Assembly: GCA_963711835.1 (NCBI GenBank)
Contig: CAVQFQ010000012.1
Location: 83,776 to 147,775, forward strand
Length of the DNA stretch: 64,000 nucleotides
Direction of reading: 5' to 3'
Origin: an uncultured delta proteobacterium
Lineage (GTDB): Bacteria; Desulfobacterota; RBG-13-43-22
Both the position numbers and the translations under genes were made by a program. Below, one piece after another: positions 11,612 to 46,402 of the stretch (positions within the stretch are counted from its first letter, which is position 1; the number at the start of each line of letters is the position of its first letter). Under the pieces are notes generated by a model. That model had not been told where the DNA came from, did not search any database, and saw only the letters and a list, made by a program, of their open reading frames with translations.

Positions 11612-12430
11612 TCAGGCCCCTTTGAATTCCCCTTTTCTGTTTTGCAGATACGAAGCGATGGCCTCGTAGAGGTCCTCGGAAGGCAGGATCATAGAGGATC
11701 GGGCGGCCGTGTAATCCAGGGACTGTTCCAGACCGACCTCTTCATTGTAAAGCAGGACCTCCTTGGCCCCCTGCACTCCCAGGGGCGAATTGGAGGCGAT
11801 CTCCTCGGCCATTTCCCTGGCTTTCGCTTCAAGGGTCCCCTGGTCCGGATAGACGTCATTGACCAGATTGATGGCCTTGGCCCGCCCGGCATCGAAGCGA
11901 TGCCCCCGGAAGGCGATCTCCCGGGCATGGCCGCGACCGACCACCCGGGGCAGGCGCTGCAATCCCCCCACATCGGTAATGATGGCCAGCTTGGGCTCCG
12001 GCAGGGCGAAGAGGGTTTCGGCCGAGCAGAGACGGATGTCGCAGCACAGGACCAGTTCCAGACCCGCTCCCAGGCAGTGACCAAAGATAACCGCAATGGT
12101 CGGCTGAAGCAGGCGCTCCAGCCGGGTGTGAATGGCCTGGACCTTTTTAGCCATCCGATAAAATTTCAGCTTCTGAGTGGCGCTGGCCGCGGCCCCGATG
12201 GTCATGAGAAGTTCATTCTCCGGGCCGAGATCCAGGCCGGCGCAAAAGGAATTCCCTTCTCCTCGAAGGAGGATCACCCGGGCCTCGGTGTCCTCCTCGG
12301 CTTGGGCAATAGCCCTGTCCAGGGCCTGCCAGACCGCTATGTTCAGGGCATTCCGCTTTTCGGGCCTGTTCAAAGTAATGAATCCTAAATACCCTTCACG
12401 TTGATATGTGACCAATTCCTGTTCGCTCAT
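11612..12430 (-). CDS. Crotonase-family enzyme, delta3,5-delta2,4-dienoyl-CoA isomerase-like
   Basis: LNRPEKRNAL, FCAGLDL, GAGLE; LPEPKLAIITDVGGLQRLP matches the ECH1-type E..D-VG-LQRLP pattern. Confidence 0.85.
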   Translation of the reverse strand: MSEQELVTYQREGYLGFITLNRPEKRNALNIAVWQALDRAIAQAEEDTEARVILLRGEGNSFCAGLDLGPENELLMTIGAAASATQKLKFYRMAKKVQAIHTRLERLLQPTIAVIFGHCLGAGLELVLCCDIRLCSAETLFALPEPKLAIITDVGGLQRLPRVVGRGHAREIAFRGHRFDAGRAKAINLVNDVYPDQGTLEAKAREMAEEIASNSPLGVQGAKEVLLYNEEVGLEQSLDYTAARSSMILPSEDLYEAIASYLQNRKGEFKGA

Positions 12431-12446
12431 GAATAATGCCTCCTCT

Positions 12447-13604
12447 TTAAATCATAACTTCCAGATTCTCCAACGGATAAGAAACGCAGGCATGGACATA
12501 GCCGTAGCGCCGGTCCGAACGCCTGACCGGGACGCCTGCCGGTTCAAAGACCTTGCCAGACAGGATCTTCACCCGGCACTGGCTGCATTCCCCGGACCGG
12601 CACAGGGTCGGGACCAGTATCCCCTGCTTCTCCAGAGAAGCGGCCAAGGGCTCTCCGGCCCGGACTTCCACTGAGCCGCCGCCCTTGATGCTGACCCGAA
12701 AAGTCTGACCTCCTTTGACTTCGCCGGGCCAGTTGGGAGAGCGGGTGATATCCATTGGAGGTCCATAGACTTCTTTGCGGATTTTTCTCCTCGGAATCCC
12801 CAGCCCCTCCAGCTCGGGGATGCAGAAATCATACATGGCTTTGGGGCCGCACAGGTAAAAGGTCTTGTCATTCACATCCGGCAGGCTGCTCCTGATGAGG
12901 TCACCGGTGATAAGTCCCCTCAATCCCTGAAATCCTGCCGGTGGGGATTCAATGACAGGAAAGTAATGTATATTGGAGAAACTCCCCGAAATGCCGGAAA
13001 GCACATCGTGAAAGATGGTTTCTTCAATGGTCTTGGTTCCAAAAAAAAGATAGATCTCCCGATCCAGCCCGCATTCCACCACCTCCCGCACCATGCTCAT
13101 AAAAGGGGTGATGCCGCTTCCGCCGGCCAGGCAGACCATGGTCCGGTCATGAAAAAGAGGATTATGGTAAAAGTGGCCTTCAGGTCCTGAACTTTGAAGA
13201 CCGTCTCCCCTCTTCACCTCATCGATGAGATAATTGGATATCAATCCTCCTTCCGTCCTCCGGACGGTAATATCATAATAACCGGTCTGGTTGGGTGCGG
13301 AGGAAATGCTGTAGGGCCGGGAAGTCCTGATACCTCCGACCTCCAGAAAAAGGGCGATATACTGGCCGGCCAGGAAAGGCGGCAGATAGCCTTCCGGAGA
13401 AATTAACCTGAGGGTTTTTGTCGAGGGCGTCTCGTTTATGATATCGGAGACTTGGAGGTTTAGGCGCTTGGGATGAAGGCGCTGGATGTAGGGGTCAGCC
13501 GCGTCCTTTTCCCCCGAATAATCCAATCCGTATTTCCGGCTGTATTCCCGCTCCTCCACGATCCGTTCATAGCCGTCAAATTCCTTGAATATGTCCTTTC
13601 TCAT
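12447..13604 (-). CDS. FAD/NAD-binding oxidoreductase with C-terminal 2Fe-2S ferredoxin (PaaE/Hcr-like)
   Basis: RPYSISS, AGGSGITP, YLCGP, CRSGECSQC...C. Confidence 0.92.
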   Translation of the reverse strand: MRKDIFKEFDGYERIVEEREYSRKYGLDYSGEKDAADPYIQRLHPKRLNLQVSDIINETPSTKTLRLISPEGYLPPFLAGQYIALFLEVGGIRTSRPYSISSAPNQTGYYDITVRRTEGGLISNYLIDEVKRGDGLQSSGPEGHFYHNPLFHDRTMVCLAGGSGITPFMSMVREVVECGLDREIYLFFGTKTIEETIFHDVLSGISGSFSNIHYFPVIESPPAGFQGLRGLITGDLIRSSLPDVNDKTFYLCGPKAMYDFCIPELEGLGIPRRKIRKEVYGPPMDITRSPNWPGEVKGGQTFRVSIKGGGSVEVRAGEPLAASLEKQGILVPTLCRSGECSQCRVKILSGKVFEPAGVPVRRSDRRYGYVHACVSYPLENLEVMI

Positions 13605-13644
13605 GCTCCGCTCCTGATGAATTTTTCCCTATGCATTTAAAACT

Positions 13645-13850
13645 TTTTAGCCACAAACCTACACGGACCCCGCTTCAGTGGCGGTCGCGGGGCAAGGCGC
13701 CGGCAGACTATTAGTTTTTAGCTGTTCGACATGAACAGGCTAAAACAGGGCAACGCTTCGCGAGAAAATACTTTATATGCGCCAAAGGCGCAGACGATTA
13801 GGGTGTCGGCAGGTCGCCGTCACCTGTCCTGTCTTTGTCTGTGGCAAAAA
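13645..13850. repeat. ~200-bp intergenic palindromic element, GCCACAGAC family, copy 1
   Basis: Ends TTTTAGCCACAAAC and GTCTGTGGCAAAA; the right half is the reverse complement of about 30119-30224. Confidence 0.8.
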
Positions 13851-13875: not shown

Positions 13876-15379
13876 TTACTTTCCATCCAATTCCCGGATG
13901 ATCTTCCTGGCAGCCGCGGCCCCGGCTTCGAGGGTAGGCTGGAAGCCGCAGTCCCCGGTCCAGCCGCTGGCAAAGGACAGACCCGGGATGGGCGAACTCC
14001 GCCCGGGCTGGAAGAACATGGAATCCTTGGTGTACTGCTCAAAGCCGTAAATGGCGCCGTTGGGATGGCCCAGGTAGCGCATGTGGGTCAGGGGAGTCGC
14101 GGCCTCGATTTCCTCGATGTGGCCTCTTACGCCTGGGAAGGCCGCTTCCACCCGGCGCAGCATGGATTCGGCGACGCGGAATTTCACCCTCTGATATTGA
14201 GTCGGAGGAATCCGCAGCCAGGGCTCTCCATATTTTAATGTAACGACATTAGCCTGACAGGTACCCGGCGGTGAAAAACCCGGGTCGGCCACGTCATAAC
14301 AGCTCAGGGCCATGAACTGATTTCCCAGATCCAGCCGATGAAAATCGATGAGTGTTTTATCTGTGATATCAGTATGATTTAAAAGAAAAGTCATGGATCC
14401 GGTGATACCCAATTCCTGGGGCTCGCGATCAAACCCGATAAATAGGACGAAAGCCGATGGGCTGAGGGTCCTGCCCCGCATCTCATGGAATACATTCCCC
14501 GGTACGAGCTCCGGATCCAGAAGCCTGGTATAGGTAGCTACCGGCGAGACATTCGAAACCACATTCCGGGTTTTTATGCGCTCCCCATGTTCGGTGACCA
14601 CCCCGGCAATCCTTCCTTTATCCAGCAGGATCTTATTGACACCGCAATTAAAGCGAACCGTGCCTCCCTGTGATAGAAAGCGGTTAATCAGCGCATTGGA
14701 CAGGGCCTGGGAACCTCCTCTGATGTGAAAGGGCTTGAACTCGATATAGGTGAAATAAAGCATAGCCAGATAGGCGAATGAGATCCTGGTTGGAGGCAGA
14801 CCCAAAAATCCCCAGTACACAGAGATAAAGCACTTCAGTAAGGGGTCGCTGAAAAGCTCATCCAGGACTTCCTTGGCCGGCTTAAAGGCATAGTGATAGA
14901 GGACCGGGTATTTCTCTCGGGAAGGATCCGGGTCCTTAAAAAAAAACACCGAGAGCATCTGATAGGCATATTCATAAGACAGGTTAAAAAACCGCTCTAT
15001 CCCTTCTTTTTCCTTGGGGAATTTCTCCTGAAAGGCGGCAATGACCTGAGCCCGATCGGGCTTGAGGGCCAGGCGGAAGTCTCCCGGTCCAATAACATGA
15101 AATAGGTCCTTTGACTCCACCAGCTCCAGGTCATCGAGGATTCCCAACTGGCTGAGCAGCATCCGGAGCGGGCCGGGATTGTCCGACAGTCCCTACCCCG
15201 CTGAGCTGGTGCAGGGCCACTTCGAATTCAAACCTCCCCCGACAAAAGCTGGTGGCGCACCCTCCCGGGATGTTGTGCCGTTCCAGCAGCAGGACCTTCA
15301 GACCTTTCTGGGCCAGGGTCGTCGAGGCGGTCAGCCCGCCGTTCCCGGCTCCCACTACCACCACATCGAATTCTTCCAT
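13876..15379 (-). CDS. Phytoene desaturase / retinol saturase-like FAD oxidoreductase (one frameshift near 15185)
   Basis: VVVVGAGNGG...LERHNIPGGCATSF.RG.FEFEVALH joins the 428-aa ORF with GGSQALS, ATPLTHMRY...GAIYG. Confidence 0.88.
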
Positions 15380-15405: not shown

Positions 15406-17109
<1,704 letters not shown>

Positions 17110-17445: not shown

Positions 17446-18597
17446 TCATCCCTTCAACTTTTTCATGAGTTCGTTGATGATGATAATCCGCTGGATCTGA
17501 TTCGTTCCGGCCCCGAATTCAATGCCCTTAATGTCCCGGTAAATCCGCTCGATAGGATACTCCCGGATAAAGCCGTAGCCGCCGAAAACCTGGCTCGCTT
17601 TCCCGACGGCCCTGACCCCGGCCTCGGCACAAAAAAGTTTAGCGTAAGAGGCTTCCAAACGCACCCGTTTTCCCGAGCCGGCCAGCGTGGCCGCCCAATA
17701 GGCCAAGACCCTTCCGGCCTGGATCTCGGTAGCGATATCGGCCAGGATTTCCTGCATCATCTGAAATTGAATAATCGGTTTCCCAAACTGGATCCGTTGC
17801 TGGGCATAGCGAAAGGCCAGGTCAAAGGCCCCCTGGGCCGCCCCAATGGGCGCCATGGACCAGAGGATCCGTTCCCGGTCCAGACCGCTCATCAGGACGT
17901 TGATCCCCCGGTTCTCTTCACCCAACAGGTTCTCCTGCGGGACTTCACAGTTCTCGAAGAACAGTTCACCGGTCGGCGAACCCCTCACTCCCATTTTTTT
18001 CATGGGCTGGCCCCGGGTAAAGCCCGGAAACCCCGCTTCCACGATAAAGGCCGAGATGCCGTTCTGGCCGGCCTCGGGATTGGTCTTGGCATAAACGATA
18101 GCCACATCAGCCAGGGGTCCGTTGGTGATAAAGGTCTTGGACCCATTCAGCAGATAGCGGTCTCCTTTTTTATCGGCCCGGCAGCGCAGGGAAAGGGCAT
18201 CGGAGCCGGCCTCCGGCTCGGTAAGGGCCAAGGCCCCGATTTTTTTTCCGGCAATGAGATCGGGCAGGAGGCGTCTTCTTTGTTCCTCATTGCCGTTCCG
18301 GTAGATGCTCTCGGTGCAAAGAATGGCATGGGCTCCGTAGGTATTTCCGGTGGAAACGCATCCCCGCATCAACTCTTCCATGACCAGCAGGCAGGATAGA
18401 AAATCGGCGCCCCCTCCTCCATAGTCTTCCGGCAGCGACATCCCGAAAATTCCCATCCCGGCCAAGGCCTTGAAGTTCTCTTCCGGGAACCGTTCCTCTG
18501 CATCAAGGATCGGGGCCAGCGGGACAACCCGCTCATCCACGAATCGGGCCATCTGCGCCTTAAGCATTTTCTGTTCTTCGGTAAGTTCAAAGTCCAT
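17446..18597 (-). CDS. Isovaleryl-CoA dehydrogenase-like acyl-CoA dehydrogenase
   Basis: GALALTEPEAGSD, LNGSKTFITNGP, VLMSGLDRER (IVD-position Glu), FGAGTNQIQR. Confidence 0.9.
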   Translation of the reverse strand: MDFELTEEQKMLKAQMARFVDERVVPLAPILDAEERFPEENFKALAGMGIFGMSLPEDYGGGGADFLSCLLVMEELMRGCVSTGNTYGAHAILCTESIYRNGNEEQRRRLLPDLIAGKKIGALALTEPEAGSDALSLRCRADKKGDRYLLNGSKTFITNGPLADVAIVYAKTNPEAGQNGISAFIVEAGFPGFTRGQPMKKMGVRGSPTGELFFENCEVPQENLLGEENRGINVLMSGLDRERILWSMAPIGAAQGAFDLAFRYAQQRIQFGKPIIQFQMMQEILADIATEIQAGRVLAYWAATLAGSGKRVRLEASYAKLFCAEAGVRAVGKASQVFGGYGFIREYPIERIYRDIKGIEFGAGTNQIQRIIIINELMKKLKG

Positions 18598-18599: not shown

Positions 18600-19970
18600 C
18601 TACTCCTCCTCGTCTTCTTCCTCTTCCTCTTTGGGGAGGAATCGCTCGATAAAATGGGTGGTAAATTCACCTTTCCGAAAAAGGGGATCGTCCAGGATCC
18701 GGATATGGAGCGGGATGGTAGTCTTGATGGGCTCTATCTTGAATTCCCTCAAGGCCCTTTTCATAATCCGGATGGCGCCCTCCCGGGTGAGATCATAGCT
18801 GATGAGCTTGGCGATCAGGGAGTCGTAAAAGATGGGCAGTTCATAACCCTGGTAGAGGTGGGTGTCTAATCTGATCCCGAAGCCGCCCGGCGGCTGAAAA
18901 ACTTCGATCAGGCCGGGAGAGGGCAGAAAAAAGCGGTCCGGGTCCTCGGCATTGATGCGGCACTCCAAGGCCCAGCCCCGGCGCTGAATAGCCTCCTGGG
19001 AATAGGCCAGCTCTTCACCGGCCGCTATTTTTATTTGTTCCCGGATAAGATCGATGCCGGTCGTCATTTCCGTCACCGGATGCTCGACCTGGATCCGGGC
19101 GTTGATCTCCATAAAATAAAAGGCCCCATTTTCATCCAGTAGAAATTCCACCGTACCGGCATTGACATAATGAACGGCCTCGGCGGCCCGAACGGCTGTC
19201 CGGGCCATGGCCTCCCGCAGCCTTGGGGTCAGCCCGGGAGAGGGCGATTCTTCGATCAGCTTCTGATACCTTCGCTGAATGGTGCATTCCCGCTCGCCCA
19301 AGTGAATCACCTTCCCCAGACCGTCGGCCAGGATCTGAAATTCAATATGCCTCGGCCCGCTGAGAACCTTTTCAATATAAACCTCGTCATTGCCGAAAGC
19401 GGAACGGGCCTCCATTTTAGCGACGGCGAATTCTTCCCTGAGGGCTTCCTTATCCGGGCAGATCCGGATCCCTCGTCCCCCCCCGCCCCCCGAGGCCTTG
19501 ACCATAATCGGATAACCGATCTCCTCCCCGATCCGGACGGCCTCTTCAATCGTAGCCACGGCCTGATCGCTTCCGGGAATAACCGGAACACCGGCCTTTT
19601 TCATGATCCTTTTGGAGGTGATCTTCTCCCCGGCCTTCTTGAGGTTCTGGGGGGTAGGGCCGATGAAGACCAGACCTTCAGCCTGGCACAGCCTGGCAAA
19701 GGTCTCGTTTTCCGCCAGGTAGCCGTAGCCGGGATGGATGGCCTGAGCCCCGGTTGTCTTGGCCGCCCCGATGATGCGCTCCATGGCCAGATAACTCTGG
19801 GCGCTGGGAGGCGGGCCGATGCAGATGTGTTCGTCGGCCAGCTCGCGGTGCCGGGAGTTGATATCGGCTTCCGAATAGACCGCCACAGACCTTATGTCCA
19901 TTTCTCGGCAGGCCCGGATGATCCTGAGAGCGATCTCACCCCGATTGGCAATGAGGATCTTGGAAAACAA
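18600..19970 (-). CDS. accC: Biotin carboxylase subunit
   Basis: KILIANRGEIA, HPGYGYLAEN, GGGGRG, ERECTIQRRYQK, RIQVEHPVTE, YDSLIAK. Confidence 0.95.
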   Translation of the reverse strand: MFSKILIANRGEIALRIIRACREMDIRSVAVYSEADINSRHRELADEHICIGPPPSAQSYLAMERIIGAAKTTGAQAIHPGYGYLAENETFARLCQAEGLVFIGPTPQNLKKAGEKITSKRIMKKAGVPVIPGSDQAVATIEEAVRIGEEIGYPIMVKASGGGGGRGIRICPDKEALREEFAVAKMEARSAFGNDEVYIEKVLSGPRHIEFQILADGLGKVIHLGERECTIQRRYQKLIEESPSPGLTPRLREAMARTAVRAAEAVHYVNAGTVEFLLDENGAFYFMEINARIQVEHPVTEMTTGIDLIREQIKIAAGEELAYSQEAIQRRGWALECRINAEDPDRFFLPSPGLIEVFQPPGGFGIRLDTHLYQGYELPIFYDSLIAKLISYDLTREGAIRIMKRALREFKIEPIKTTIPLHIRILDDPLFRKGEFTTHFIERFLPKEEEEEDEEE

Positions 19971-20212: not shown

Positions 20213-20494
20213 CTAGACCATCTCGATCACGAGTATCAAGTCATTGTCTTTAAGGGTGGTTTCATTTTCCACTATGATCTTGACGACCTTTCCGTTGGCC
20301 GGTGATTTAACCTTCTGAAAGACCTTCATGGTCTCCAGCAACCCCAAGACCTGTTTCTTCTTGACCAGATCGCCCTCCTGCACATAAGGAGGTTGGTCAG
20401 GGGCCGGCCTGCAATAGAAAACCCCGGACATGGGAGCCCTGACTTCGATCACTTTCATTCGCATTGCATCAGCATGATTCTCGGACATTGACAA
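20213..20494 (-). CDS. accB: Stand-alone biotin carboxyl carrier protein (true start probably 20458-20464)
   Basis: APMSGVFY...P.V..GD.V....LGLLETMKV (biotinylated Lys). Confidence 0.9.
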   Translation of the reverse strand: MSMSENHADAMRMKVIEVRAPMSGVFYCRPAPDQPPYVQEGDLVKKKQVLGLLETMKVFQKVKSPANGKVVKIIVENETTLKDNDLILVIEMV

Positions 20495-20565: not shown

Positions 20566-21435
20566 TCAGTTAGACCGCAAACCCAGGATTTGCCTGGCCT
20601 CAGCCGGGCTGGCGATCTCTCTCCCCACCTCCCGGACGATCTTGGCCAGGGCTTCCACCAACAGACCGTTGTTCACGGCCTTTTCTCCGTTTGGTAGATA
20701 AAAAGTGTCCTCCAGGCCGCTCCGCACATTCCCTCCCAATTCCACACAGCGCCGGTGCAGGTCCCAGACCTCTTTCCGGCCGATGGCGATTACCTGATAG
20801 TGGGCCCCTTTCGGCATCTCCTCGATCAGCAGGGGAAGCCACTCCGGTTTGGCCGGCATACCGCTGGCCACACCCATGACCAGGGAGATGTGGGCCGCTC
20901 CCTCAAACATCCCGTTCCGCTGGAAAAGGCCCACGCTGCGCACGATCCCGCTATCAAAACATTCAAACTCCGGCACAACGCCGTTGGCCTTCATCACTTC
21001 CAGAAATCCTTGCACTTTTTCCACCGGATTATCGAACAGGCTCGGCGGCCAGGCCCAGTTGCCGTCGCTCCTGAGCTTTAAGTAGTTCAACGACCCGGCA
21101 TTGCAGGCCGCCATCTCGGGTTTGAACTTTTCCAGGCAGGCTGCCGGGCCGGAGATGTCCGACCCCATCACCCCGGTGCTCATGCAGATGATGATCTCCG
21201 GGACCCGGGCCTTGATGGCCGCCAGGATCGCTCCCACCGTTTCCAGGTCCCAGGTGGGCAGGTGCCCCAGGCCCTGACCCTGGTTACGGAAATGGACATG
21301 AACCGTGGAGGCCCCGGCATTGTAGGCCTGTTGGGCCTGGTCGGCCATCTCCTCCGGTGTTACCGGGACATGGTGAATCGCCGGATCGGTCAGCACGCCG
21401 GTCAAGGCGCAAGTGATAACAGTCTTGGCACTCAT
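20566..21435 (-). CDS. Beta-keto acid cleavage enzyme (BKACE/Kce, DUF849)
   Basis: ITCALTG, PVTPEE, AGASTVHVH, PEFECFD, GGNVRSGLED; start at ATG 21435 after a GAGGAAGG RBS. Confidence 0.92.
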   Translation of the reverse strand: MSAKTVITCALTGVLTDPAIHHVPVTPEEMADQAQQAYNAGASTVHVHFRNQGQGLGHLPTWDLETVGAILAAIKARVPEIIICMSTGVMGSDISGPAACLEKFKPEMAACNAGSLNYLKLRSDGNWAWPPSLFDNPVEKVQGFLEVMKANGVVPEFECFDSGIVRSVGLFQRNGMFEGAAHISLVMGVASGMPAKPEWLPLLIEEMPKGAHYQVIAIGRKEVWDLHRRCVELGGNVRSGLEDTFYLPNGEKAVNNGLLVEALAKIVREVGREIASPAEARQILGLRSN

Positions 21436-24965: not shown

Positions 24966-25055
24966 GGGGCCAAGGATTCAGGGGTCGAGGGTTCAAGTGA
25001 GAATTAGTATCATTAATTAATTCGCCGAACGCTCGAACGCTTGACGCCGGGATCC
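24966..25055. repeat. 8-mer periodic repeat element overlapping the fadH stop
   Basis: GGGGCCAAGGATTCAGGGGTCGAGGGTTCAAGTG ... CGAACGCTCGAACGCTTGACGC. Confidence 0.6.
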
Positions 25056-34322: not shown

Positions 34323-34730
34323 TTAATACTTGCTCAAGGCCTTGGGTATCATCCTCGGGTTGGCAATTTCTAATTTCCTGATTACCGTTTCCCGGAGGTG
34401 GGCCAAGACCTCTTTCCGCCATGCTCCGGTATCGGCCTCCCCCTCCCTGATATGCCGGCAGAGTTCCTCGTTGAGACTGGAGACCTTTTCCTTAATCAAG
34501 TCCGCGGAAACTTCCTTGGAAGGCGGGCAAGAAAGCAGCTTGCCGAGACCCTCGGCTTCTCTTATCAGGTATTGCTTTTCCAAGGCCGCCTCCCGTCCGA
34601 TAATTTTTAACAAGTTGGCCGCCACCCGGGTGTGGAACCGCAAAGGTTCTTCCAATACCGGCACCAGCTCTGACTCCAGGAAATGACAGATACCTTTAAG
34701 TAACTCTGCGCTGGTGGGACGATCCTGCAA
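34323..34730 (-). CDS. DUF6285 / LvaB-like small partner of the phosphotransferase
   Basis: DRPT.AELL....FL.......RFH.RVAAN.L.I..RE...KL.IANP; starts 1 bp after the kinase stop. Confidence 0.75.
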   Translation of the reverse strand: MQDRPTSAELLKGICHFLESELVPVLEEPLRFHTRVAANLLKIIGREAALEKQYLIREAEGLGKLLSCPPSKEVSADLIKEKVSSLNEELCRHIREGEADTGAWRKEVLAHLRETVIRKLEIANPRMIPKALSKY

Positions 34731-34731
34731 T

Positions 34732-37486: not shown

Positions 37487-37527
37487 CGTTCTTTCTTTTC
37501 AAACGGTGCGGTTGATCCGCTCGGCGG

Positions 37528-38223
37528 TTACAGGGCCAGATATTTTATTTTCAATTCCTCGTTGCTTTTGAGTTCCTCGCAGGTCCCGCTCCACTGGATC
37601 TGCCCCTTGTCTATCACGTAGGCACGGTGGCTGATGTTGACGGCCAACCCCAAGCCCATTTCGGAGAGCACCAGGGTTATTTTTTCTTGCGAAAGGCGCT
37701 GGATCTGTTCGGCCAGGGCCTCCACCACCAAAGGGGCCAATCCTTCCGAGGGCTCATCCAGGAGCAGCAGTTCGGGGTTGCCCATCAGCGTCCGGCCGAT
37801 GGTCAGCATCTGCTGTTCACCGCCGGAAAGCTGGTTCCCAAAATGCTTTTGCATCCTTTCCAGTTGAGGAAACATGGCGAAAATTTTTTCCAGGGTCCAG
37901 TCGCCCATCCCTTTTTTTTGAGCCACTTCCAACTGCTCCCGGACCGTCAGGCTGGGAAAAACCCGGCGGTCTTCCGGGACAAAACCGACGCCCAGACGGC
38001 TGATGGCAATCGGGCTCCGGCCGGCGATCTCCTGGCCCCTGTAGCGGACGGCGCCGGAGCGGGGAGGCGTCAGCCCCATAATGGATCGCAGGGTGGTGGT
38101 TTTACCCGCACCGTTCCGGCCCAGCAGGCAGACCGTCTCCCCCTCGGCTACGGTCAGAGAAAGGTCGAACAGTATATGGCTCGATCCGTAAAAGGTATTG
38201 ATTCGTTCCAGCTCCAGGATCAT
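37528..38223 (-). CDS. livF: LIV-type ABC ATPase
   Basis: [28 protein letters not shown]. Confidence 0.93.
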   Translation of the reverse strand: MILELERINTFYGSSHILFDLSLTVAEGETVCLLGRNGAGKTTTLRSIMGLTPPRSGAVRYRGQEIAGRSPIAISRLGVGFVPEDRRVFPSLTVREQLEVAQKKGMGDWTLEKIFAMFPQLERMQKHFGNQLSGGEQQMLTIGRTLMGNPELLLLDEPSEGLAPLVVEALAEQIQRLSQEKITLVLSEMGLGLAVNISHRAYVIDKGQIQWSGTCEELKSNEELKIKYLAL

Positions 38224-38960
38224 CCTTTTTCTCCTAAGTAGACCTGGCGGACCTTAGGGTCCTCCTTGATCCGGGCCGGCGGGCCGTCGGCGATTATCTG
38301 CCCCTGGACCATGACGGCGATCCGCCGGGCCCAGGCGAAAACGATGCTCATGTCGTGTTCGGTAAACAGCAGCGTCAGCTTTTCTTTTTCGGCCAGTTCG
38401 TTGATCAGGGCCATAGTGCCCAGCCGTTCATCGGGGGCCATGCCGGCGGTCGGTTCATCCAGCAGAATCAGATGCGAATTATTGGCCAGGACCATTCCGA
38501 TTTCCAATCTTTTTTTATCGCCATGGGAAAGCAGTCCCCCGGGGGTCCCGGCCAGGTCCTGAAGGCCCACCTTGATCAGGATTTCTTCGGTCGCCTCCCG
38601 GAACATCTTTCGGGCCGGGGAGAACAGGTGGAAGGATTTCTTTCGGGCCGCGATCAGGGTCATCTGGACGCTTTCAAAGACAGACAGGTCGGGATAGATA
38701 TTGACGATCTGGAAGGACCGCCCCACCCCCCTCCGGACGATTTGATCCGCGGAACGCCTGGCCAGATTCTCGCCCCGGTAGAGGATCTCGCCGCCATCAG
38801 GACTGTAATATCCGGAGAGGAGGTTAAAAAAGGTGCTTTTACCGGCGCCGTTGGGGCCGATAACCGCCAACCGCTCCCCTTCCTCCACGGCCAGGTTCAC
38901 GTCGTAAACGGCCATCAGCCTTCCGAAGGTCTTTCGCAGGTTCTTGATCTGCAGAAACAT
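38220..38960 (-). CDS. livG: LIV-type ABC ATPase
   Basis: GPNGAGKST, LSHGDKKR, LDEPTAGM, TEHDM. Confidence 0.93.
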   Translation of the reverse strand: MFLQIKNLRKTFGRLMAVYDVNLAVEEGERLAVIGPNGAGKSTFFNLLSGYYSPDGGEILYRGENLARRSADQIVRRGVGRSFQIVNIYPDLSVFESVQMTLIAARKKSFHLFSPARKMFREATEEILIKVGLQDLAGTPGGLLSHGDKKRLEIGMVLANNSHLILLDEPTAGMAPDERLGTMALINELAEKEKLTLLFTEHDMSIVFAWARRIAVMVQGQIIADGPPARIKEDPKVRQVYLGEKG

Positions 38961-38971
38961 GGACGCCTTTC

Positions 38972-39931
38972 TCAGCGGTGGGGCGCGGTTCCGCTGCCGA
39001 ACCGGTCTTTAAAGAACCCTGAGATCCCCCCCGGCATGAAGAGGACGAAAAGGATGATCAACAGACCCAGGACCAACTGCCAGTAAAAGGTATACAGGGA
39101 GATATAGTGTTCCAGCAGGGTGATGATGGCCGACCCTACCAGCGGCCCGATAAACACCCCGACTCCGCCCAGGATGCACATCAGGACCACACTGGCCGAG
39201 GTGGTCCAGTAGCCGAACTCCGGGAATACCGCCCGGTTAAAGATGGCCAGCAGGGAGCCGGCAATCCCGGCAAAAAATCCGGCGATGACGAAATTAAGCA
39301 ACTGGTGGTGCCAGACCTTTAGGCCGCTGAAGGTCACCCGGTCCCGGTTTTCCCGGATGGCCACGATGGTCTGCCCAAAGGCCGATCCCTGGATAATTCG
39401 GATCAGGGCCAGACAGGCGCATAGAACGGCCAGTACTACATAATAATAGGCTTTGGCGCTCTGAATGGCCGCCGGGATGGGTATCCCCGTAATCCCGTCG
39501 TCGCCCCCGGTAAGACCGTACCATTTATGGGCGAAGGCCCAGACGATCTGGCTGAAGCCCATGGTCAGAATGGCGAAGTGAATGCCGCTGAGCCGGACGG
39601 AAAAATACCCGATCACCACGGCCAGCATGGCGGCGGCCAAGGGGGCGGCCGCAAGCCCCAGGATCAGGGGGGCCTTGAGCCGGACCACAAACAGGGCCAG
39701 GGTGTATCCGCCTACGGCGTAGAAGGCCGCATGGCCGAAAGAAGGCAGACCGGCCCGGCCCAGGATCATGTTCAGGCTCATGGCGAACAGGGCGACGATC
39801 AGGACTTGAATGGCCATGTGAAGCCACATCTTGGGCGCCCAGACCGGCAACAGGGTCAAAAAGGCCAAAATGATCAAGATCAAGACCCAAAGAGTGGTTC
39901 TTCCCTTCCGCTTTTCCCCTGGCTGTGGCAT
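38972..39931 (-). CDS. livM: LIV-type ABC permease
   Basis: SFGHAAFY, FAILT, TGGDDG, IREN, GP.VG. Confidence 0.93.
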   Translation of the reverse strand: MPQPGEKRKGRTTLWVLILIILAFLTLLPVWAPKMWLHMAIQVLIVALFAMSLNMILGRAGLPSFGHAAFYAVGGYTLALFVVRLKAPLILGLAAAPLAAAMLAVVIGYFSVRLSGIHFAILTMGFSQIVWAFAHKWYGLTGGDDGITGIPIPAAIQSAKAYYYVVLAVLCACLALIRIIQGSAFGQTIVAIRENRDRVTFSGLKVWHHQLLNFVIAGFFAGIAGSLLAIFNRAVFPEFGYWTTSASVVLMCILGGVGVFIGPLVGSAIITLLEHYISLYTFYWQLVLGLLIILFVLFMPGGISGFFKDRFGSGTAPHR

Positions 39932-39944
39932 GGGTCACCTCTGC

Positions 39945-40832
39945 CTATTTAATGACTACCGGCTTGCCGAAGAGGCCCCAGGGCCGGATAATTAAAACCA
40001 CCACCATGACCAGATACGTAAAGGCGATGGCGAACTCGGGCAGGATCAGAATCCCGAAGGCCTGGACCTCGCCGACCAAGAAGGAGGCCAGCAACGCCCC
40101 CGGCAGGCTGCCCAGCCCGGCGATGACCACCACCACAAAAGCGATGATCCCGGCCTCCACCCCCATATCGGCCGCCATACCGGCCATGGGAGCCACCAGT
40201 GCCCCACCGATGGCGGCAATCCAGGCCCCCAGACCGAAAACGCCGGTGAACACCCAGGGGACATTGATCCCCAAAGCGGCGGTCATTTCCCGGTCATCGG
40301 CCGCAGCCCGCATGGTCTTCCCCAGTTTGGTCTTATGAATGATAAACCAGATAAGGAAAAAAACAAAAAAACCCATGACGATCAGAAAAGCGTTGTAGAG
40401 CGGGAAAACGAGGCCGAAAATTTCCAGCGGCTGCTGGAACATGGGCGGCATGGGGGCGGTGAGGATGATCCAGCCCCAGAGCATCCGGGCCAGATCGTAG
40501 GTGACGATTAAAATCCCATAGGTCATCAATAGGATGTACAAGGCCGGTTTCTCATAAAACCAGCGCAGCAGGAAGACCTCCAGGAGGCAGAAAAAGGCGG
40601 CCACCACGGTCGGAGCGATCAGCAGGGTCAGCCAGAATCCGGCATCGGTGCCGCCGAAAAGTTTCACAAAGCTATAGGTCGTATAGGCCCCCAGCATGTA
40701 AATGCCGCCCTGGGCGAAATTCATGATCTTTAGGACCCCCAGGATCAGGGTCAGTCCGGCCGCGATCAGAAAATAGATCATGGCCGTGGTCAGGCCGCTC
40801 ATAAATTGGGATAAGATATCGACACCGGTCAT
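39945..40832 (-). CDS. livH: LIV-type ABC permease
   Basis: AGLTLILG..KIMNFAQG, GLGSLPGA, RPWGLFG. Confidence 0.93.
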   Translation of the reverse strand: MTGVDILSQFMSGLTTAMIYFLIAAGLTLILGVLKIMNFAQGGIYMLGAYTTYSFVKLFGGTDAGFWLTLLIAPTVVAAFFCLLEVFLLRWFYEKPALYILLMTYGILIVTYDLARMLWGWIILTAPMPPMFQQPLEIFGLVFPLYNAFLIVMGFFVFFLIWFIIHKTKLGKTMRAAADDREMTAALGINVPWVFTGVFGLGAWIAAIGGALVAPMAGMAADMGVEAGIIAFVVVVIAGLGSLPGALLASFLVGEVQAFGILILPEFAIAFTYLVMVVVLIIRPWGLFGKPVVIK

Positions 40833-40855
40833 GGACGTGCCCTTATGGTTCCAGA

Positions 40856-40898
40856 GGTCGGGCGCCGGCCTCCGGTAGGTCGAGGCCGGCGCCCGACC
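40856..40898 (-). terminator. GC-rich stem-loop between livK and livH (mRNA stabiliser or partial terminator)
   Basis: GGTCGGGCGCCGGCCTC-loop-GAGGCCGGCGCCCGACC, perfect 17-bp stem. Confidence 0.65.
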
Positions 40899-40931
40899 GG
40901 GTTAGAAGCCGGTAGGGTAACTCAGGTCCCC

Positions 40932-42194
40932 TTACTTGGCGGCGGCCCTTTCCGCCTGGATTTGTTCGCAACTCGGCATGGTGGGCGGGCCCGGGATAGT
41001 GGTAATATCTTTTAAAACGAACCAGGGCCATTTGGGATCCTTGACGGTTACCCCGACGGCGATCCCGTAGTCGGATTGATGATCGCATTTCCGGATGGCG
41101 ATGGTCTTAGACGGAGCGATGGTTTTGACGGAAATCCCTTCCAGGGCGCTGATCAGGGCCTCAGTGGCCACCGTTCCGGCCTTTTCAATCCCGGCTACGA
41201 TAAAGCTGCCGGCGTTATAGCCCAAAACGGAATAATCGGAGGGAAACCGGCCCATTTTAGCCTGGTAGTTTTCGTAAAAGGCCTTGTTTTCGGGCGAACC
41301 CGGGTAGTCGAAGGGCGCCTCGGACAGGACATACACGCCTTCCACCATTTCCTGACCCATGGGTCTCAGGAGGGGCATCCCCCAGAAGAGGCCTACGACC
41401 TTTATTTTGCTGAAGAAACCGTAGCCTTTGGCCTGCTTGATGAAGGTCATAGCATCGGTGCCCCACAGGCTGGTGTAGACGATTTCCGGTTTGGCCGTCA
41501 TCAGGGCGGTGATATAAGGGGTATAATCCGTAGTTCCCAATTTGGGCCATTGTTCGGTTACCAGCGTGAACCCGGGTTTCATGGCCTTCATAGCCTTGGA
41601 AAAGGCCGTAGCCTGGTCCCGGCCATAGGCGTAGTCCGGGTGAATATAGGCCCACTTGGTATACGGTTTGTCCTTAAAATAATTGGCGGCGGCATGCCCG
41701 TTCATCCAGGTATTTCCCGAACTTCTAAAAACGTAGGGGTGTCCTTTGGAACCGGTGACGTCATCGGCCCGGGCATCCCAGACCCAGTAGAGGACCTTGT
41801 TTTCCTTCGCCCACTGAGACAGGGCCAAGGCACAGGCGCTGCTGATGCCGCCAACCAGGAAATCACATTTTTCTTCGAACATGAGTGCCTTGGCATTCTG
41901 AACAGCGATGTCGGGTTTTAGCTTGTCGTCTCGGACGATGATTTCAATTTTTCGCAAGCCTTCTTTGGTTTTCACGCCTCCCTTGGCATTGACCTCTTCG
42001 ATCCTGGCCTTGAACCCCTCCACGTCATCCAATCCGAATTCCGAGACCATCCCGGAAATGGATTGAACGACCCCGATCTTGATCGGGGGAGGAGCCGCGT
42101 TTCCCTGACTGCTGCTGAAAACAAAAATACCTGCCACCAAGATTATGAACCAACCAAAAGACTTCCACCCTCCCCTGCCTTGTGAAGACTTCAT
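40932..42194 (-). CDS. livK: LIV-type substrate-binding protein
   Basis: Signal peptide, PIKIG, RDDKLKP, DYAYG, GTTDYTPYI, RKCDHQ. Confidence 0.92.
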   Translation of the reverse strand: MKSSQGRGGWKSFGWFIILVAGIFVFSSSQGNAAPPPIKIGVVQSISGMVSEFGLDDVEGFKARIEEVNAKGGVKTKEGLRKIEIIVRDDKLKPDIAVQNAKALMFEEKCDFLVGGISSACALALSQWAKENKVLYWVWDARADDVTGSKGHPYVFRSSGNTWMNGHAAANYFKDKPYTKWAYIHPDYAYGRDQATAFSKAMKAMKPGFTLVTEQWPKLGTTDYTPYITALMTAKPEIVYTSLWGTDAMTFIKQAKGYGFFSKIKVVGLFWGMPLLRPMGQEMVEGVYVLSEAPFDYPGSPENKAFYENYQAKMGRFPSDYSVLGYNAGSFIVAGIEKAGTVATEALISALEGISVKTIAPSKTIAIRKCDHQSDYGIAVGVTVKDPKWPWFVLKDITTIPGPPTMPSCEQIQAERAAAK

Positions 42195-43038: not shown

Positions 43039-43581
43039 TTGGAATCTATCGGGAAGAAGATCAGAACACTGCGGAAAAACCGGGGACTGACCCTTAAAAA
43101 GGTCGCGGAGGTGGTAGGATGTACCCCTTCCTACCTTTCTATGGTGGAAAACGATAAATTGGACCCGTCCACCTCGAGACTCAAACAGATTGCCGACGCT
43201 TTAGGTTCCACGGTGGTGCAGCTCTTCCCCGATCAAGGTCAGGACGATATAATCCTCCGGTACAAGGATCGACAAAAGGTGAGCGTTTCCGGTTCGAAAT
43301 TATTGTTCGAGATATTGATCCATCAAGATCCGGATAAAAAAATGGATGCCCGTCTGGCGACCATTTATCCGGGAGGCGGCTCGGGCGGGAGTTACACGCA
43401 CAACGGGGAAGAATTCGGTTTTATACTCAAAGGGACACTGGAACTGACCGTGGAAAACAAAACCTATATCCTGCAAAAAGGGGATGCCTTTTATTTCCAT
43501 TCCACCAAGAGCCACCAGTTTCACAACCACGGGGACGAAGAGGTCGAGGTTCTCTGGGTAAATCATCCGCCATCCTGGTAG
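43039..43581 (+). CDS. XRE-HTH + cupin transcriptional regulator
   Basis: IGKKIRTLRKNRGLTL...SYLSMVEN...PS; HNGEEFGFILKG...GDAFYF.S...H. Confidence 0.93.
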   Translation: MESIGKKIRTLRKNRGLTLKKVAEVVGCTPSYLSMVENDKLDPSTSRLKQIADALGSTVVQLFPDQGQDDIILRYKDRQKVSVSGSKLLFEILIHQDPDKKMDARLATIYPGGGSGGSYTHNGEEFGFILKGTLELTVENKTYILQKGDAFYFHSTKSHQFHNHGDEEVEVLWVNHPPSW

Positions 43582-43719
43582 GCGGCCGGAAACCTTTCGG
43601 ATGCCTCTCAAGAGGAATATTGGAACCCGGCAACGAAGTCACGGGAGGGATGGGGAAAATCCCCTGGAGCCGTCCCCTCACCGGCCTTGAGCGGAACATT
43701 TTTCAAAAGGAGAAGGATT

Positions 43720-44482
43720 ATGCTGGATCTCTTTGACTTAACCGGAAAGGTGGCCCTGGTCACCGGGGCCTCCAAGGGGCTGGGAAAGGCCTTGGCCAGA
43801 GGATTGGCCAAAGCCGGGGCTGATCTGGCCCTGTGTGCCAGAAACCTGGATGAACTGCAGCAGACCAAAAATGAAATTGAGCAACTGGGAGTCCGGGCAG
43901 AAATATTTCAAATGGATGTCCTAAATAAAGGAAGCATTCAGAAAGCAGTCCTCTCTGCCCTGGGAACTTTTAAGCAAATCGATATTCTGGTCAACAACGC
44001 CGGGATCAATGTCCGTAAACCGGTTTTGGAAATCCAGGAAGCGGAATGGGATCAGGTGCTCAATACCAACCTCAAGGGCTATTTTCTGGTCGCCCAGGCG
44101 GTAGTTCCGAATATGATCGAACGCCAAAAAGGGAAAGTCATTAATATGGCTTCCATCTTGGGGGCCGTGGGGCTTGAAAATCAATCCCCCTATGCCTCCA
44201 GCAAGGGCGGGGTGATCCAGTTGACCAAGGTCATGGCCCTGGAGTGGGCCCGCCATCATATTACATGTCAACGCCATCGGACCGACCTATTTTGAAACCC
44301 CGCTGGTGGCCGCTCTGCGCAATGATCCGGAGCGCTTCCGATTCATAAACGAGCGGACGCCCATGGGCCGCTGGGGGCAGCCCGAAGAGCTGGAAGGGAC
44401 GGTAATCTTTCTGGCCTCCAAGGCCGCCGACTTCATCACCGGACAAACCATCTTTGTCGACGGTGGCTGGACGATCTGGTGA
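43720..44482 (+). CDS. Short-chain dehydrogenase/reductase (gluconate 5-dehydrogenase/KduD-like); frameshift near 44265
   Basis: TGASKGLG, NNAG, YASSKGG; second frame ...RTPMGRWGQPEEL...FITGQTIFVDGGW. Confidence 0.9.
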
Positions 44483-44488
44483 GACAAG

Positions 44489-44866
44489 AAATTCGAAATC
44501 CGAATTTCGAAATCCGAAACAAATCCAAATGACCGAAAATCAAAATTCAAAACAATACGACTTGGAAGACCGTACTCTTCTGTTTGCAAAAAAGGTGAGG
44601 AAATTTATAAAAGAGCTGCCAAAAACAATAGCAAATATCGAAGATGGAAAACAACTTATCAAATCCTCCGGATCCGTTGGAGCAAATTATATTGAAGCCA
44701 ATGAATCTTTGAGCAAAAGAGACTTTGTCCTGAGAATAAAAATCTGTCGCAAAGAAGCGAATTAGAGTATGTCGGCTTACTGGGTATAAACATTATTTTG
44801 TTTTGGTCATTTGAATTTTTGATCATTTGAATTTGTTTCGGATTTCGTGCTTCGATATTCGGATTT
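44489..44866. repeat. 7-mer periodic palindrome, copy C, carrying a four-helix-bundle gene
   Basis: Left arm 44489-44555 and right arm 44797-44866 match copies A and B. Confidence 0.85.
44529..44765 (+). pseudogene. Four-helix-bundle (23S IVS protein / bAvd-like) protein, C-terminally truncated
   Basis: YDLEDRT..FA...QLIKSSGSVGANYIEANESLSKRDF..RIKICRKEA, then TAG before the usual ES.YWL helix. Confidence 0.85.
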
Positions 44867-44884
44867 ATCTTTGGAGGGGAAATT

Positions 44885-46402
44885 ATGTTGATATTTGAGA
44901 TGCTCCAGGCCAGCGCCGAAAGACTTCCCGATAAAATCGCCTTGATCTGCGATGACTGGAGACTGACTTATGCAGAGTTGGAAACCGGCGCCCTGTCGTT
45001 GGCCTGCCATTTTCAGAAGCTGGGCATCAAAAAGGGTGACCGGGTCGCCCTGCTTTTCCCCAACTGCAATGAAATGGCCCTGGCCTATTTTGCCTGCGCC
45101 GCCATCGGCGCCATATCCGTTCCTCTCAACAACCGGCTGACCGGCAAGGAATTTACCTATATTGTCAACGACTGCGGGGCTTCCCTGATGGCCGTTGGGT
45201 ACCAGTTCTGGGAAATTTCCCAGCAGATCAAGGCCGAACTGCCCTTGGTAAAGAATTTTATTTATGCCGGAGAGGAAAAGAAAAGCGGGGCCCTCTATTT
45301 TCAAGATCTCCTAAACGAAAAGACCTTGCCGGACATTCCTCCATTAATCCTCGATGATACCGCTACCATCATGTACACCTCAGGGACCACCGGTTTGCCC
45401 AAAGGGGCCATGATGAGCCATCGCAATATTTTCGCCAATGCCCGTAACTGTGGGGCGATGCTCACCTACAAGGAAACAGACATCACCCTGATTGTCGTTC
45501 CCCTCTTCCATGTAACGGGACTCAACAGCCAACTGGTGGCCTTCCTATTTATCGGAGGGACCTGCGTGATCATGAAGGCTTATAAAACCGCTGACATGAT
45601 TGAGGCCATAGAAAAACACAAGATCACCGTACTTTTCAATGTCCCGACTATGTATGTCCTGATGCTCATCAGTGAGGCAATCAAGGAGAGGGATATCTCA
45701 TCGGTACGGATGGCCGCCTATGGAGGGGCCCCTATGGACCGAGAGACGATTCTGGAGCTAAAGAATAAGTTCGGCATGGACCTCTATAACGCCTATGGTC
45801 TGACCGAATCCTCTTCTCTGACCACTGTTTTGCCGGCCTGTGATGCCGTCCGTAAGGCCCCTTCGGTTGGACTGCCCGTCCCCGGGATTCAACTTAAATC
45901 CATCGACGGGGAGAACAAGGAGGTGCCTCCCGGTGAACCCGGCCAACTGCTGATCAAGGGCCCCAATATCGTCAGGAGCTATTATAACAAACCGGAGGTC
46001 ACCCAGAAATCCATTATTGACGGCTGGCTGTATTCTGGAGACGTCGCCCGGATCGACGATGAAGGCTATGTCTTTATCGTGGACCGAATGAAGGACATGA
46101 TCGTCCGCGGCGGGGAAAATATTTATTCCATTGAAGTGGAGTCGGTCCTTAACTCCCACCCCAAGGTCCTGGAATCGGCGGTCGTTCCCGAACCGCACCA
46201 CATCTTCGGCGAGGTGGTCCGGGCCTGTCTGGTCCTGCGGCCCGAAACGGAAGCCACGGTCGAGGAAATCCTGGAATACTGCCGGCAGCACCTGGCCGAC
46301 TTCAAAGTGCCGGCCCGGGTCGTTTTTCTTCCCGAACTGCCCCGCAATCCCGGGGGCAAGGTGGTCAAAAGCCAATTAAAGGCCCTGAAGGTGGAAGCTT
46401 AG
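44885..46402 (+). CDS. Acyl-CoA ligase
   Basis: YTSGTTGLPKG, YGLTESS, WLYSGD, DRMKDMI.RGGENI, PRNPGGK. Confidence 0.95.
   Translation: MLIFEMLQASAERLPDKIALICDDWRLTYAELETGALSLACHFQKLGIKKGDRVALLFPNCNEMALAYFACAAIGAISVPLNNRLTGKEFTYIVNDCGASLMAVGYQFWEISQQIKAELPLVKNFIYAGEEKKSGALYFQDLLNEKTLPDIPPLILDDTATIMYTSGTTGLPKGAMMSHRNIFANARNCGAMLTYKETDITLIVVPLFHVTGLNSQLVAFLFIGGTCVIMKAYKTADMIEAIEKHKITVLFNVPTMYVLMLISEAIKERDISSVRMAAYGGAPMDRETILELKNKFGMDLYNAYGLTESSSLTTVLPACDAVRKAPSVGLPVPGIQLKSIDGENKEVPPGEPGQLLIKGPNIVRSYYNKPEVTQKSIIDGWLYSGDVARIDDEGYVFIVDRMKDMIVRGGENIYSIEVESVLNSHPKVLESAVVPEPHHIFGEVVRACLVLRPETEATVEEILEYCRQHLADFKVPARVVFLPELPRNPGGKVVKSQLKALKVEA

Follow-up and report, generated by a model that had tools for sequence, protein, structure and literature searches.

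Related pathways and enzyme families

The closest described relatives of the locus considered here are the leucine/isovalerate (Liu) pathway (LiuA, methylcrotonyl-CoA carboxylase (MCC) or LiuBD, LiuC and LiuE) and the acyclic terpene utilisation (Atu) pathway known from Pseudomonas and Thauera (AtuD, GCC or AtuCF, AtuE and AtuA/LiuE). With the former, the locus and its host share an isovaleryl-CoA dehydrogenase (IVD)-like enzyme, a biotin carboxylase system, a putative one-glutamate hydratase, a predicted cleavage step and the activation of acetoacetate. Unlike the Liu pathway, however, the carboxyltransferase (CT) is a PCC-lineage pair, biotin carboxylase (BC) and biotin carboxyl carrier protein (BCCP) are separate, and the genome lacks an HMG-CoA lyase while possessing a BKACE and extra enzymes for unsaturated chains. 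With the Atu pathway the locus has in common the three-step logic of carboxylation, hydration and cleavage, but neither AtuC/AtuF nor any other GCC-type beta subunit, nor AtuA, was found in the cluster, and a terpene substrate would here be a guess. The BKACE family itself (Kce, PdKce/BKACE15, BsfD and ObcA) shares its fold, zinc ligands and catalytic residues with the protein at this locus, which differs by a Thr106-to-Ala change. A retro-aldol reaction by any BKACE was not found in the cited literature. Precedent for an unrelated family assuming the lyase step of leucine breakdown is provided by Mycobacterium tuberculosis Rv2498c, a CitE-family protein distinct from BKACE, which is reported to act as an HMG-CoA lyase (PMC6689899).

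Two units within 35 kb

The window, as we term the whole 64,000-nucleotide stretch of DNA that was analysed, derives from an 89% complete genome encoding dsrA and acetyl-CoA synthase, that of a sulfate-reducing bacterium. Every enzyme that a first-pass annotation had named was recovered in its place; 59 of the 125 listed ORFs were scanned against Pfam. That annotation had also drawn the 35 kb as a single cluster, a grouping that is supported for the carboxylase–BKACE core and not supported for much of the remainder. The comparisons below draw on 301 genomes of the host's phylum, 201 of a second phylum and 41 related loci, all compared genomes being MAG-grade and mutually related.

The conserved core comprises CT1 (23378..24928), CT2 (21546..23102), stand-alone BCCP (20213..20494) and BC (18600..19970), together with the BKACE, a DUF849 protein and the predicted C–C cleavage enzyme (20566..21435), all on the minus strand. 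Among the best 4–5 candidates scored per genome, CT2 occurs in 24 of the 301 phylum genomes, 22 of which also carry the BKACE clade; of the two exceptions, G056 has BKACE fragments, truncated at contig ends, behind both of its CT2 copies. Of 29 BKACE clade copies, 19 are adjoined by CT2 and 17 by a one-glutamate crotonase, ECH_B. Accessory genes on the same strand are co-conserved at part of the 41 loci: an IVD-like acyl-CoA dehydrogenase (ACAD; 17446..18597, 7 loci), whose best solved relatives are isovaleryl-CoA dehydrogenases; LIG1, a long-chain acyl-CoA ligase (15406..17109, 8 loci); a flavoprotein of the phytoene-dehydrogenase/retinol-saturase family (13876..15379, 8 loci) and the adjoining FAD/NAD reductase with a C-terminal 2Fe-2S domain (12447..13604, 9 loci); ECH_A, a dienoyl-CoA-isomerase-like crotonase bearing two glutamates and the isomerase aspartate (11612..12430, 12 loci); a FadH-type 2,4-dienoyl-CoA-reductase-like flavoprotein (25017..27072, 3 loci); and ACAD2, a second acyl-CoA dehydrogenase (27218..28441, 6 loci, all in the host's family). 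A Liv-type importer (livK-H-M-G-F, 28476..33699, minus strand) adjoins the core and is not co-conserved with it.

To the right lies a block containing an APH-family kinase and a DUF6285 protein, LvaA/LvaB-like by Pfam only (34323..35751), and a second Liv-type importer with the CoA ligase LIG2 (35759..42194; LIG2 at 35759–37486), both on the minus strand, followed on the plus strand by a separate unit of a divergent XRE-cupin regulator, an SDR and the CoA ligase LIG3 (43039..46402; LIG3 at 44885–46402). The kinase with its small partner, the CoA ligase and the SDR recall the levulinate (Lva) pathway of Pseudomonas putida, from which the block differs in having no LvaC-like ACAD and in being linked to the carboxylase core only in close relatives. 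It is quite improbable that the entire 35 kb, LvaAB kinase and both importers included, constitutes one pathway, for instance for a 4-hydroxy or 4-oxo branched acid. Strand is indeed uniform from 42194 to 11612, and a close relative has the Lva block in unchanged order on a contig of 8.6 kb; yet the kinase, both importers, LIG2 and LIG3, the SDR and the regulator accompany BKACE at none of the 41 loci, no Lva-block gene is linked to the core in the longer same-family regions of G048 and G052, and the units are separated by 622 bases in which an SDR remnant lies on the opposite strand. The host's LvaC-like ACADs, moreover, judged by their motif, lie on contig C17 only. The 35 kb is two units rather than one conserved cluster, the LvaAB block being a distinct module that lies alongside.

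A predicted half-site carboxyltransferase pair

By scores and tree, CT1 and CT2 are both assigned to the propionyl-CoA carboxylase (PCC) lineage, not to MCC/GCC. CT1 scores 410 bits to PCC-beta versus 151–167 to MCC/GCC-beta, CT2 scores 393–402 bits to PCC-type versus 170–200 to MCC/GCC sequences, and the two group with PccB. Neither subunit, however, retains both half-site glycine motifs of a PCC-type enzyme. In CT1 the acyl-CoA-side (N-side) motif is degenerate or lost in 17/17 copies and the biotin-side motif is kept. In CT2 the acyl-CoA-side motif reads IAGxAY, as in MCC/GCC, with the AG motif of gamma-carboxylases in all 19 copies; its biotin-side (C-side) motif is altered, with a two-residue insert, in the same 19. 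The glycine motifs presumably have the half-site roles given to them here.

Taken at face value, such PCC-type scores (340–410 bits versus 150–200 for MCC/GCC), the grouping with PccB and the two-lineage rule for carboxylases (PMC4673880) would make CT1/CT2 an alpha-carboxylase or decarboxylase acting on saturated or branched acyl-CoA, in a route unrelated to Liu/Atu; a mycobacterial alpha-carboxylase with two CTs does exist (PDB 9T97, chains D4/D5). This is unlikely, given that the host encodes a distinct PccB next to methylmalonyl-CoA mutase, that CT2 invariably bears the gamma-carboxylase AG motif, and that no sensible route can be drawn from alkylmalonyl-CoA through BKACE. Furthermore, true gamma-carboxylases are found elsewhere with this BKACE and hydratase: the MCC type in L038 and G343, the GCC type in Haematobacter. 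Finally, CT1/CT2 occur where MCC genes were lost: in three of the five CT1/CT2 genomes examined (G191, G018 and G052), the MCC operon has lost its MCC genes, and its dehydrogenase gene is followed directly by that of the hydratase. The host has a true MCC-beta on contig C4 (85% orthologue compared).

ECH_B, usually found beside the core, is encoded in the host on another contig (C4:439867). Neither solved LiuC nor AtuE was its best match, and it had no specific family match; it is put forward as the candidate hydratase on the basis of its position and its one-glutamate motif. The placement of this required enzyme outside the window, like the PCC lineage of the CTs, goes beyond what the first-pass annotation had described.

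BKACE and the cleavage step

The window BKACE matches solved members in fold (TM 0.87–0.90) at identities of at most ~34%. It is a TIM barrel with a His-x-His plus Glu zinc site and a catalytic Glu, Arg and Asp, and retains the equivalents of Glu143, Arg226, Asp231, Ser82 and Asn108. In the carboxylate-binding trio Ser82/Thr106/Asn108, the first and last are kept, but the position of Thr106, a carboxylate ligand in Kce (PMC11961710), is alanine in 55/55 sequences of what we call the Ala110 clade. The same is true of 4/4 BKACEs of a second clade occupying the operon slot described below, whereas the change occurs in 2/55 outgroup proteins and 0/27 other paralogues of the same genomes. Further differences from the known family members are a missing conserved Arg at 97, replacement of Tyr145 by Phe and a clade-specific insert at 119–131. 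The window protein scores under the thresholds of all four NCBIfam BKACE models, and the clade is currently mislabelled as a lysine-fermentation enzyme.

As first reported, the 59 scanned ORFs include neither a thiolase nor an HMG-CoA lyase. The former absence means little, since 18 thiolase-family matches lie elsewhere in the host genome. The latter extends to that genome as a whole at its 89% completeness (NF004283 at most 49 bits versus a cut-off of 246). The four HMGL-like matches, of 505–613 aa, are on our reading LeuA, CimA, re-citrate synthase and the B subunit of a carboxylase; AtuA is matched solely by a split-type gene on contig C5, and the only CitE match sits in a foreign-looking DNA stretch. 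Carboxylase, ECH_B and Ala110 BKACE without a lyase or AtuA match also occur together in G042 (94% complete), G299 (97%), G343 (95%), G044 (97%), G097 (99%) and G048 (90%). G048 is also without a CitE/HpcH match. In G097, G044 and G061, CitE-like genes occur in other settings.

Across genomes, HMG-CoA lyase is enriched, not depleted, where BKACE occurs (23/28 versus 83/273 others in the host's phylum, or 19/28 versus 68/273 over cut-off; 81/89 versus 61/112 in the second phylum), the opposite of genome-wide displacement. BKACE may thus act after a shared lyase. Carboxylation and hydration would be the same, an HMG-CoA-type lyase encoded elsewhere would split the product, and BKACE would then perform its canonical reaction, converting a long-chain 3-oxo acid and acetyl-CoA to a shorter acyl-CoA and acetoacetate. 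Consistent with this, Thr106 is the only canonical catalytic residue to have been replaced, known substrates of the BKACE family include hydrophobic 3-oxo acids (group G1; PMC4922564), and LiuE is reported active on an isohexenyl substrate (PMC4097962). Geranyl chains would, on our reckoning, give 5-methylhex-4-enoyl-CoA, fitting ACAD2, FadH and IVD. A 3-oxoacid CoA-transferase A subunit follows BKACE in 2 of 20 second-phylum regions. Counting against the reading preferred below, 11 of the 20 have neither carboxylase nor CoA transferase nearby. We nonetheless consider a separate lyase doubtful, because none is found in the host, in near-complete G044, G097, G061, G299, G343 and G042, or at any of the 41 loci, and because BKACE also occupies the AtuA slot of MCC operons.

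An MCC-beta clade (70% or more; best 4–5 candidates per genome) is present in 21 genomes, 20 of them readable at this slot. The gene after the hydratase is AtuA in 10 and BKACE in 5; the remaining 5 operons have no cleavage candidate, and their genomes carry a window-type BKACE elsewhere. HMG-CoA lyase follows the hydratase in 0/20, and in 12 of these genomes nothing matches HMG-CoA lyase at E≤1e-22. The MCC-beta beside slot BKACEs carries the Phe diagnostic of specificity for methylcrotonyl-CoA (PMC4673880). The product of this enzyme leads to acetoacetate, and with that substrate the canonical BKACE reaction would be a null exchange. Since canonical BKACE chemistry cannot split hydroxy-glutaryl-CoA, the route requires new chemistry or else a separate lyase. 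BKACE clade members are also found in atu-like operons (Haematobacter, G472 and L038), and in the position after the hydratase the clade alternates with AtuA. The two are not strictly alternatives, as they co-occur in one operon in L038, G141 and G259. Their alternation bears on the long-unsettled role of AtuA, tentatively described as an HIHG-CoA:acetate lyase (PMC4847356, PMC13689101).

Proposed route and distribution

The reading we prefer, at about an even chance of being right, is a Liu/Atu-type route that would strip a beta-methyl branch off an acyl-CoA, in which a PCC-lineage two-subunit carboxylase gamma-carboxylates and BKACE splits 3-hydroxy-3-alkylglutaryl-CoA. LIG1 would activate the acid and the IVD-like ACAD would yield a 3-methyl-2-enoyl-CoA, whose methyl group would be carboxylated by BC, BCCP and a heteromer of CT1 and CT2, CT2 supplying the acyl-CoA half-site and CT1 the biotin half-site. 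The crotonase of contig C4 would add water. The zinc TIM-barrel BKACE would then cleave 3-hydroxy-3-alkylglutaryl-CoA into a free 3-oxo acid plus acetyl-CoA, taking over from HMG-CoA lyase. Starting from isovaleryl-CoA, the 3-oxo acid would be acetoacetate, which an acetoacetate-CoA ligase orthologue in the host genome could re-activate; with a longer chain, the same site could run an ordinary BKACE step to a shortened acyl-CoA and acetoacetate. In this lineage alone, the preparation of unsaturated or conjugated chains would fall to FadH, ECH_A, ACAD2 and the flavoprotein/reductase pair. An isoprenoid substrate is a guess, and plain isovaleryl-CoA may be what the core acts on. The variant route with BKACE cleavage that was first suggested is thus retained in its Liu/Atu logic, its likely cleavage enzyme and the lyase-free host, but not as a pathway spanning all 35 kb.

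Two enzyme predictions follow: that a BKACE catalyses a lyase reaction, which would be new to its family, and that an enzyme of the PCC lineage carries out gamma-carboxylation. More tentatively, and with somewhat less conviction, one might propose that a half-site heteromeric PCC-lineage carboxylase evolved gamma-carboxylation, breaking the two-lineage rule, and that the Ala110 DUF849 clade constitutes a new family of hydroxyalkylglutaryl-CoA lyases, interchangeable with AtuA and also finishing long chains by BKACE chemistry in the same site.

Conceivably, the module could run the other way and use acetoacetate and acetyl-CoA to build isovaleryl-CoA-type primers for branched lipids. In principle its reactions can be reversed, the BKACE clade is common in myxobacteria, and a biosynthetic route to such primers exists there. 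Such a role is very improbable, as the ATP-dependent biotin carboxylase, the CoA ligases and FadH point to breakdown, as do an alcohol dehydrogenase and an aldehyde oxidoreductase in the G048 and G052 regions.

The clade is found in 28/301 genomes of the host's phylum and 89/201 of the second, a phylum with a Sandaracinaceae genome among its members. It also occurs on a Haematobacter plasmid, where its neighbour is a CT of the geranyl-CoA-carboxylase type. This breadth is at odds with the specifically anaerobic pathway originally envisaged. Being so common, the module may be a main route of methyl-branched-acid breakdown in sediment bacteria.

Four genes of the window are frameshifted in this assembly: the flavoprotein (~15185), FadH (~25500–25630), LivK1 of the first importer (three times) and the SDR (~44265). 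Extra bases are absent from contigs of close relatives at 15185 in 4/4 runs, at the FadH break in 3/4, at 44265 in 2/4 and at the LivK1 break at 33578 in 1/4, and the breaks are therefore probably assembly errors.

Extent of the module

Every gene named in the first-pass annotation is present in the window. Its proposal that these genes form one 35-kb cluster survives for the carboxylase/BKACE core, which is co-conserved, but not for the right-hand part. Neighborhoods were compared in 41 loci around BKACE relatives, 18 of them at least 15 kb long, with L046–L048 (29–33% identity) left out of the counts. Core orthologues occur in 17 (BCCP) and 14 (BC) loci for the biotin partners, and in 14 and 13 for the carboxyltransferase subunits CT2 and CT1, respectively; the window crotonase ECH_A was found in 12, and ECH_B, a one-Glu crotonase and hydratase candidate, in 10. 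Accessory orthologues comprise the reductase (9), flavoprotein (8), ligase LIG1 (8), the acyl-CoA dehydrogenases IVD (7) and ACAD2 (6), and FadH (3). The LvaA/LvaB pair, LIG2, LIG3, the SDR, the regulator, and the tested importer subunits occur in none of the 41 loci, nor do HMG-CoA lyase and CitE.

Among 301 genomes of the phylum, 28 carry the clade of the window BKACE (20566..21435, minus strand), 24 carry CT2, and 22 carry both. G056, which has CT2 without a full clade BKACE, is cut at contig ends. G100, the only one of the CT2 genomes to lack the clade, encodes CT1/CT2 but no clade BKACE and has an AtuA elsewhere; its two CT1/CT2 operons (L164, L165) contain neither BKACE nor ECH_B. Across 29 clade copies, CT2 adjoins 19 and ECH_B adjoins 17, which leaves carboxylase, hydratase, and BKACE as the minimal module. 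The host encodes ECH_B on contig C4, in a separate operon that also holds a true methylcrotonyl-CoA carboxylase (MCC). An ECH_B orthologue was present in all five window-type genomes checked, and in G048 the carboxylase/BKACE and C4-type operons form one unbroken block.

We regard the module as a real, widespread, and uncharacterised variant of the Liu/Atu pathways, smaller than the 35 kb proposed, in which two enzyme replacements are predicted, both testable. A literature search that reached few subscription journals found no paper describing it. An unexplained G1 context listed in the NetSyn supplement could be this module.

Two acyl-CoA dehydrogenases elsewhere in the host (C17:112049 and C17:135161) bear a putative ACAD10/LvaC-like motif and may act together with the LvaAB-like kinase encoded in the window.

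The carboxylase

By sequence comparison and tree (fragments shorter than 480 aa left out), CT1 and CT2 are nearer to the beta subunit of propionyl-CoA carboxylase (PCC) than to MCC or geranyl-CoA carboxylase (GCC). The GCC structure paper proposes that the PCC lineage carboxylates the alpha carbon (PMC4673880). Three observations on CT1/CT2 point the other way. All 19 CT2 copies bear IAG(G/Q)AY, which resembles the TAGGAY of MCC and GCC; in L038, G343, and Haematobacter, genuine MCC- and GCC-type genes have the same BKACE and crotonase as neighbors; and in three of five genomes examined (G191, G018, and G052), the C4-type operon retains dehydrogenase followed by hydratase without MCC genes, while CT1/CT2 are present. 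A gamma-carboxylation route of the Liu/Atu kind is the probable function of the core, a reading we hold with some confidence.

The N-side glycine motif is gone from CT1 in 17 of 17 copies, and the C-side motif is altered in CT2 in 19 of 19. With the roles that we presume for these two motifs, such complementary changes suggest that each CT1/CT2 pair may share one active site. Separately, in L070–L073, from several MAGs, two divergent HMG-CoA-lyase-like genes (~325 and ~390 aa), set in facing orientation, adjoin a glutaconyl-CoA-decarboxylase-like carboxyltransferase, possibly a sodium-coupled isovalerate route.

The slot after the hydratase

The gene following the hydratase was tabulated in 21 genomes with C4-type MCC-beta, 20 of them readable beyond it. 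AtuA occupies this slot in 10 and BKACE in 5; the remaining 5 have no cleavage candidate there and carry a window-type BKACE elsewhere. HMG-CoA lyase follows the hydratase in none of the 20 readable operons, and 12 of the 20 genomes have no lyase match at E ≤ 1e-22. Seven of the 10 BKACE genomes in this set lack an AtuA match. Two of the 10 AtuA-slot genomes have no BKACE; the other eight hold 12 copies, and none of the 10 copies examined is of the Ala type. Two papers treat AtuA as the lyase by expectation rather than demonstration (PMC4847356, PMC13689101). AtuA and BKACE share one operon in L038, G141, and G259.

To read every genome with MCC but no lyase as a user of this BKACE is an oversimplification: the lyase is absent from 20 of 33 MCC-beta genomes, and just 3 of those 20 carry the window clade. 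In most readable MCC cases the gap is filled either by AtuA or by a BKACE of a second clade; at several distant loci with MCC-beta there is no cleavage candidate whatever.

BKACE as a candidate lyase

The modeled BKACE structure (pLDDT 95.8) matches the fold of Kce, and the zinc ligands and catalytic Glu, Arg, and Asp are retained. A published supplement lists Thr106 of Kce among three carboxylate ligands (PMC11961710). All 55 clade rows, a set that includes near-copies, have Ala at this position, and the conserved Arg at 97 is absent from the clade. This Ala is shared by the second clade, 39% identical, whose members directly follow the hydratase in four MCC operons; none of the 27 further BKACE paralogues in the genomes searched has it. 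In a tree from which three degenerate outgroup rows were left out, both Ala clades fall into a single supported group; all our trees are quick searches. Chemistry is known to differ within the family, as with BsfD and ObcA (10.64898/2026.01.15.699783). Atlas and cluster look-ups returned no function, and a plasmid search with the second clade gave no match. Overall, we put BKACE as the lyase at an even chance.

TIGR03084 lies near or adjoining BKACE in L080, L082, L085, L037, and L038, as does a glutathione S-transferase in L098 (14314–14952). A thiol-dependent isomerase-family gene of this kind, found in several lineages, is a candidate E/Z isomerase for enoyl- or glutaconyl-CoA.

Lyase distribution

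A genome-wide anti-correlation between BKACE and HMG-CoA lyase was sought in sets of 41, 61, 301, and 201 genomes and was absent; the link is positive. The lyase occurs in 23 of 28 BKACE genomes versus 83 of 273 others in the phylum, and in a second phylum, that of G033 (Sandaracinaceae), in 81 of 89 with BKACE versus 61 of 112 without, although P values on this link overstate it because the genomes are kin, not independent. Of 20 BKACE regions retrieved from the second phylum, 7 have an MCC/GCC-type carboxylase beside the BKACE, 2 a 3-oxoacid CoA transferase, and 11 neither. A division of labor, with the lyase serving leucine and BKACE another branched substrate, fits this pattern. The greater frequency of the lyase in BKACE genomes fits equally with BKACE acting after a shared lyase.

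The host itself has no HMG-CoA lyase by whole-genome profile search, 18 thiolase-family matches, and one split-type AtuA outside the window. CitE was rejected as its lyase: the single CitE-like gene lies on contig C5 within positions 1–60000, a stretch of 58–65% GC versus 53% for the genome. The genes of this stretch look alphaproteobacterial, and it is likely foreign DNA in the assembly.

Substrate

Judging from IVD and from the exchange with Phe-type MCC, isovaleryl-CoA is one probable substrate. Other genes hint at a chain that is longer, unsaturated, and branched, for example that of an isoprenoid alcohol or acid: the ligase is of the long-chain type, FadH, ECH_A, and the flavoprotein pair are present, and G048 and G052 have alcohol and aldehyde enzymes inserted. 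Phytol would fit in principle; a literature search on it gave nothing usable. Solved relatives of the flavoprotein are weak, and kinship with limonene dehydrogenase or sterol desaturase (PMC11061730) is a candidate reading.

Host and assembly

The host encodes dsrA and acetyl-CoA synthase; among named genomes, Desulfobacterota MAGs are its nearest relatives. Four genes carry frameshifts. Each has a break at which the extra base is missing from closely related contigs, so assembly error is likely. Metatranscriptome contigs span the core but do not reveal whether, or how strongly, it is transcribed. A promoter and terminator scan gave counts no higher than chance.

The SDR at 43720 has a second, truncated copy on the opposite strand between the two blocks (33901–34240, plus strand; 91% identical over 145 bases, with an internal stop), which marks a rearrangement joint. 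The 58-base inverted repeats flanking a 23S-rRNA-intervening-sequence (four-helix-bundle) gene fragment (44454–44866) recur at 29173–29308 and 32172–32332, and further palindromic intergenic repeats lie at 13744, 17198, 30098, 20151, and 23280. To the right, 52677–64000 includes a third, fragmented Liv-type importer, a fourth CoA ligase, another LivK, an IS200-like transposase (57400–58380), and an aldehyde ferredoxin oxidoreductase divided between two frames (58837–61021). At 5730–11431, two tandem proteins of 918 and 964 aa carry F5/8 type C domains at the C terminus, and the first has a further match to a membrane glycosyltransferase family.
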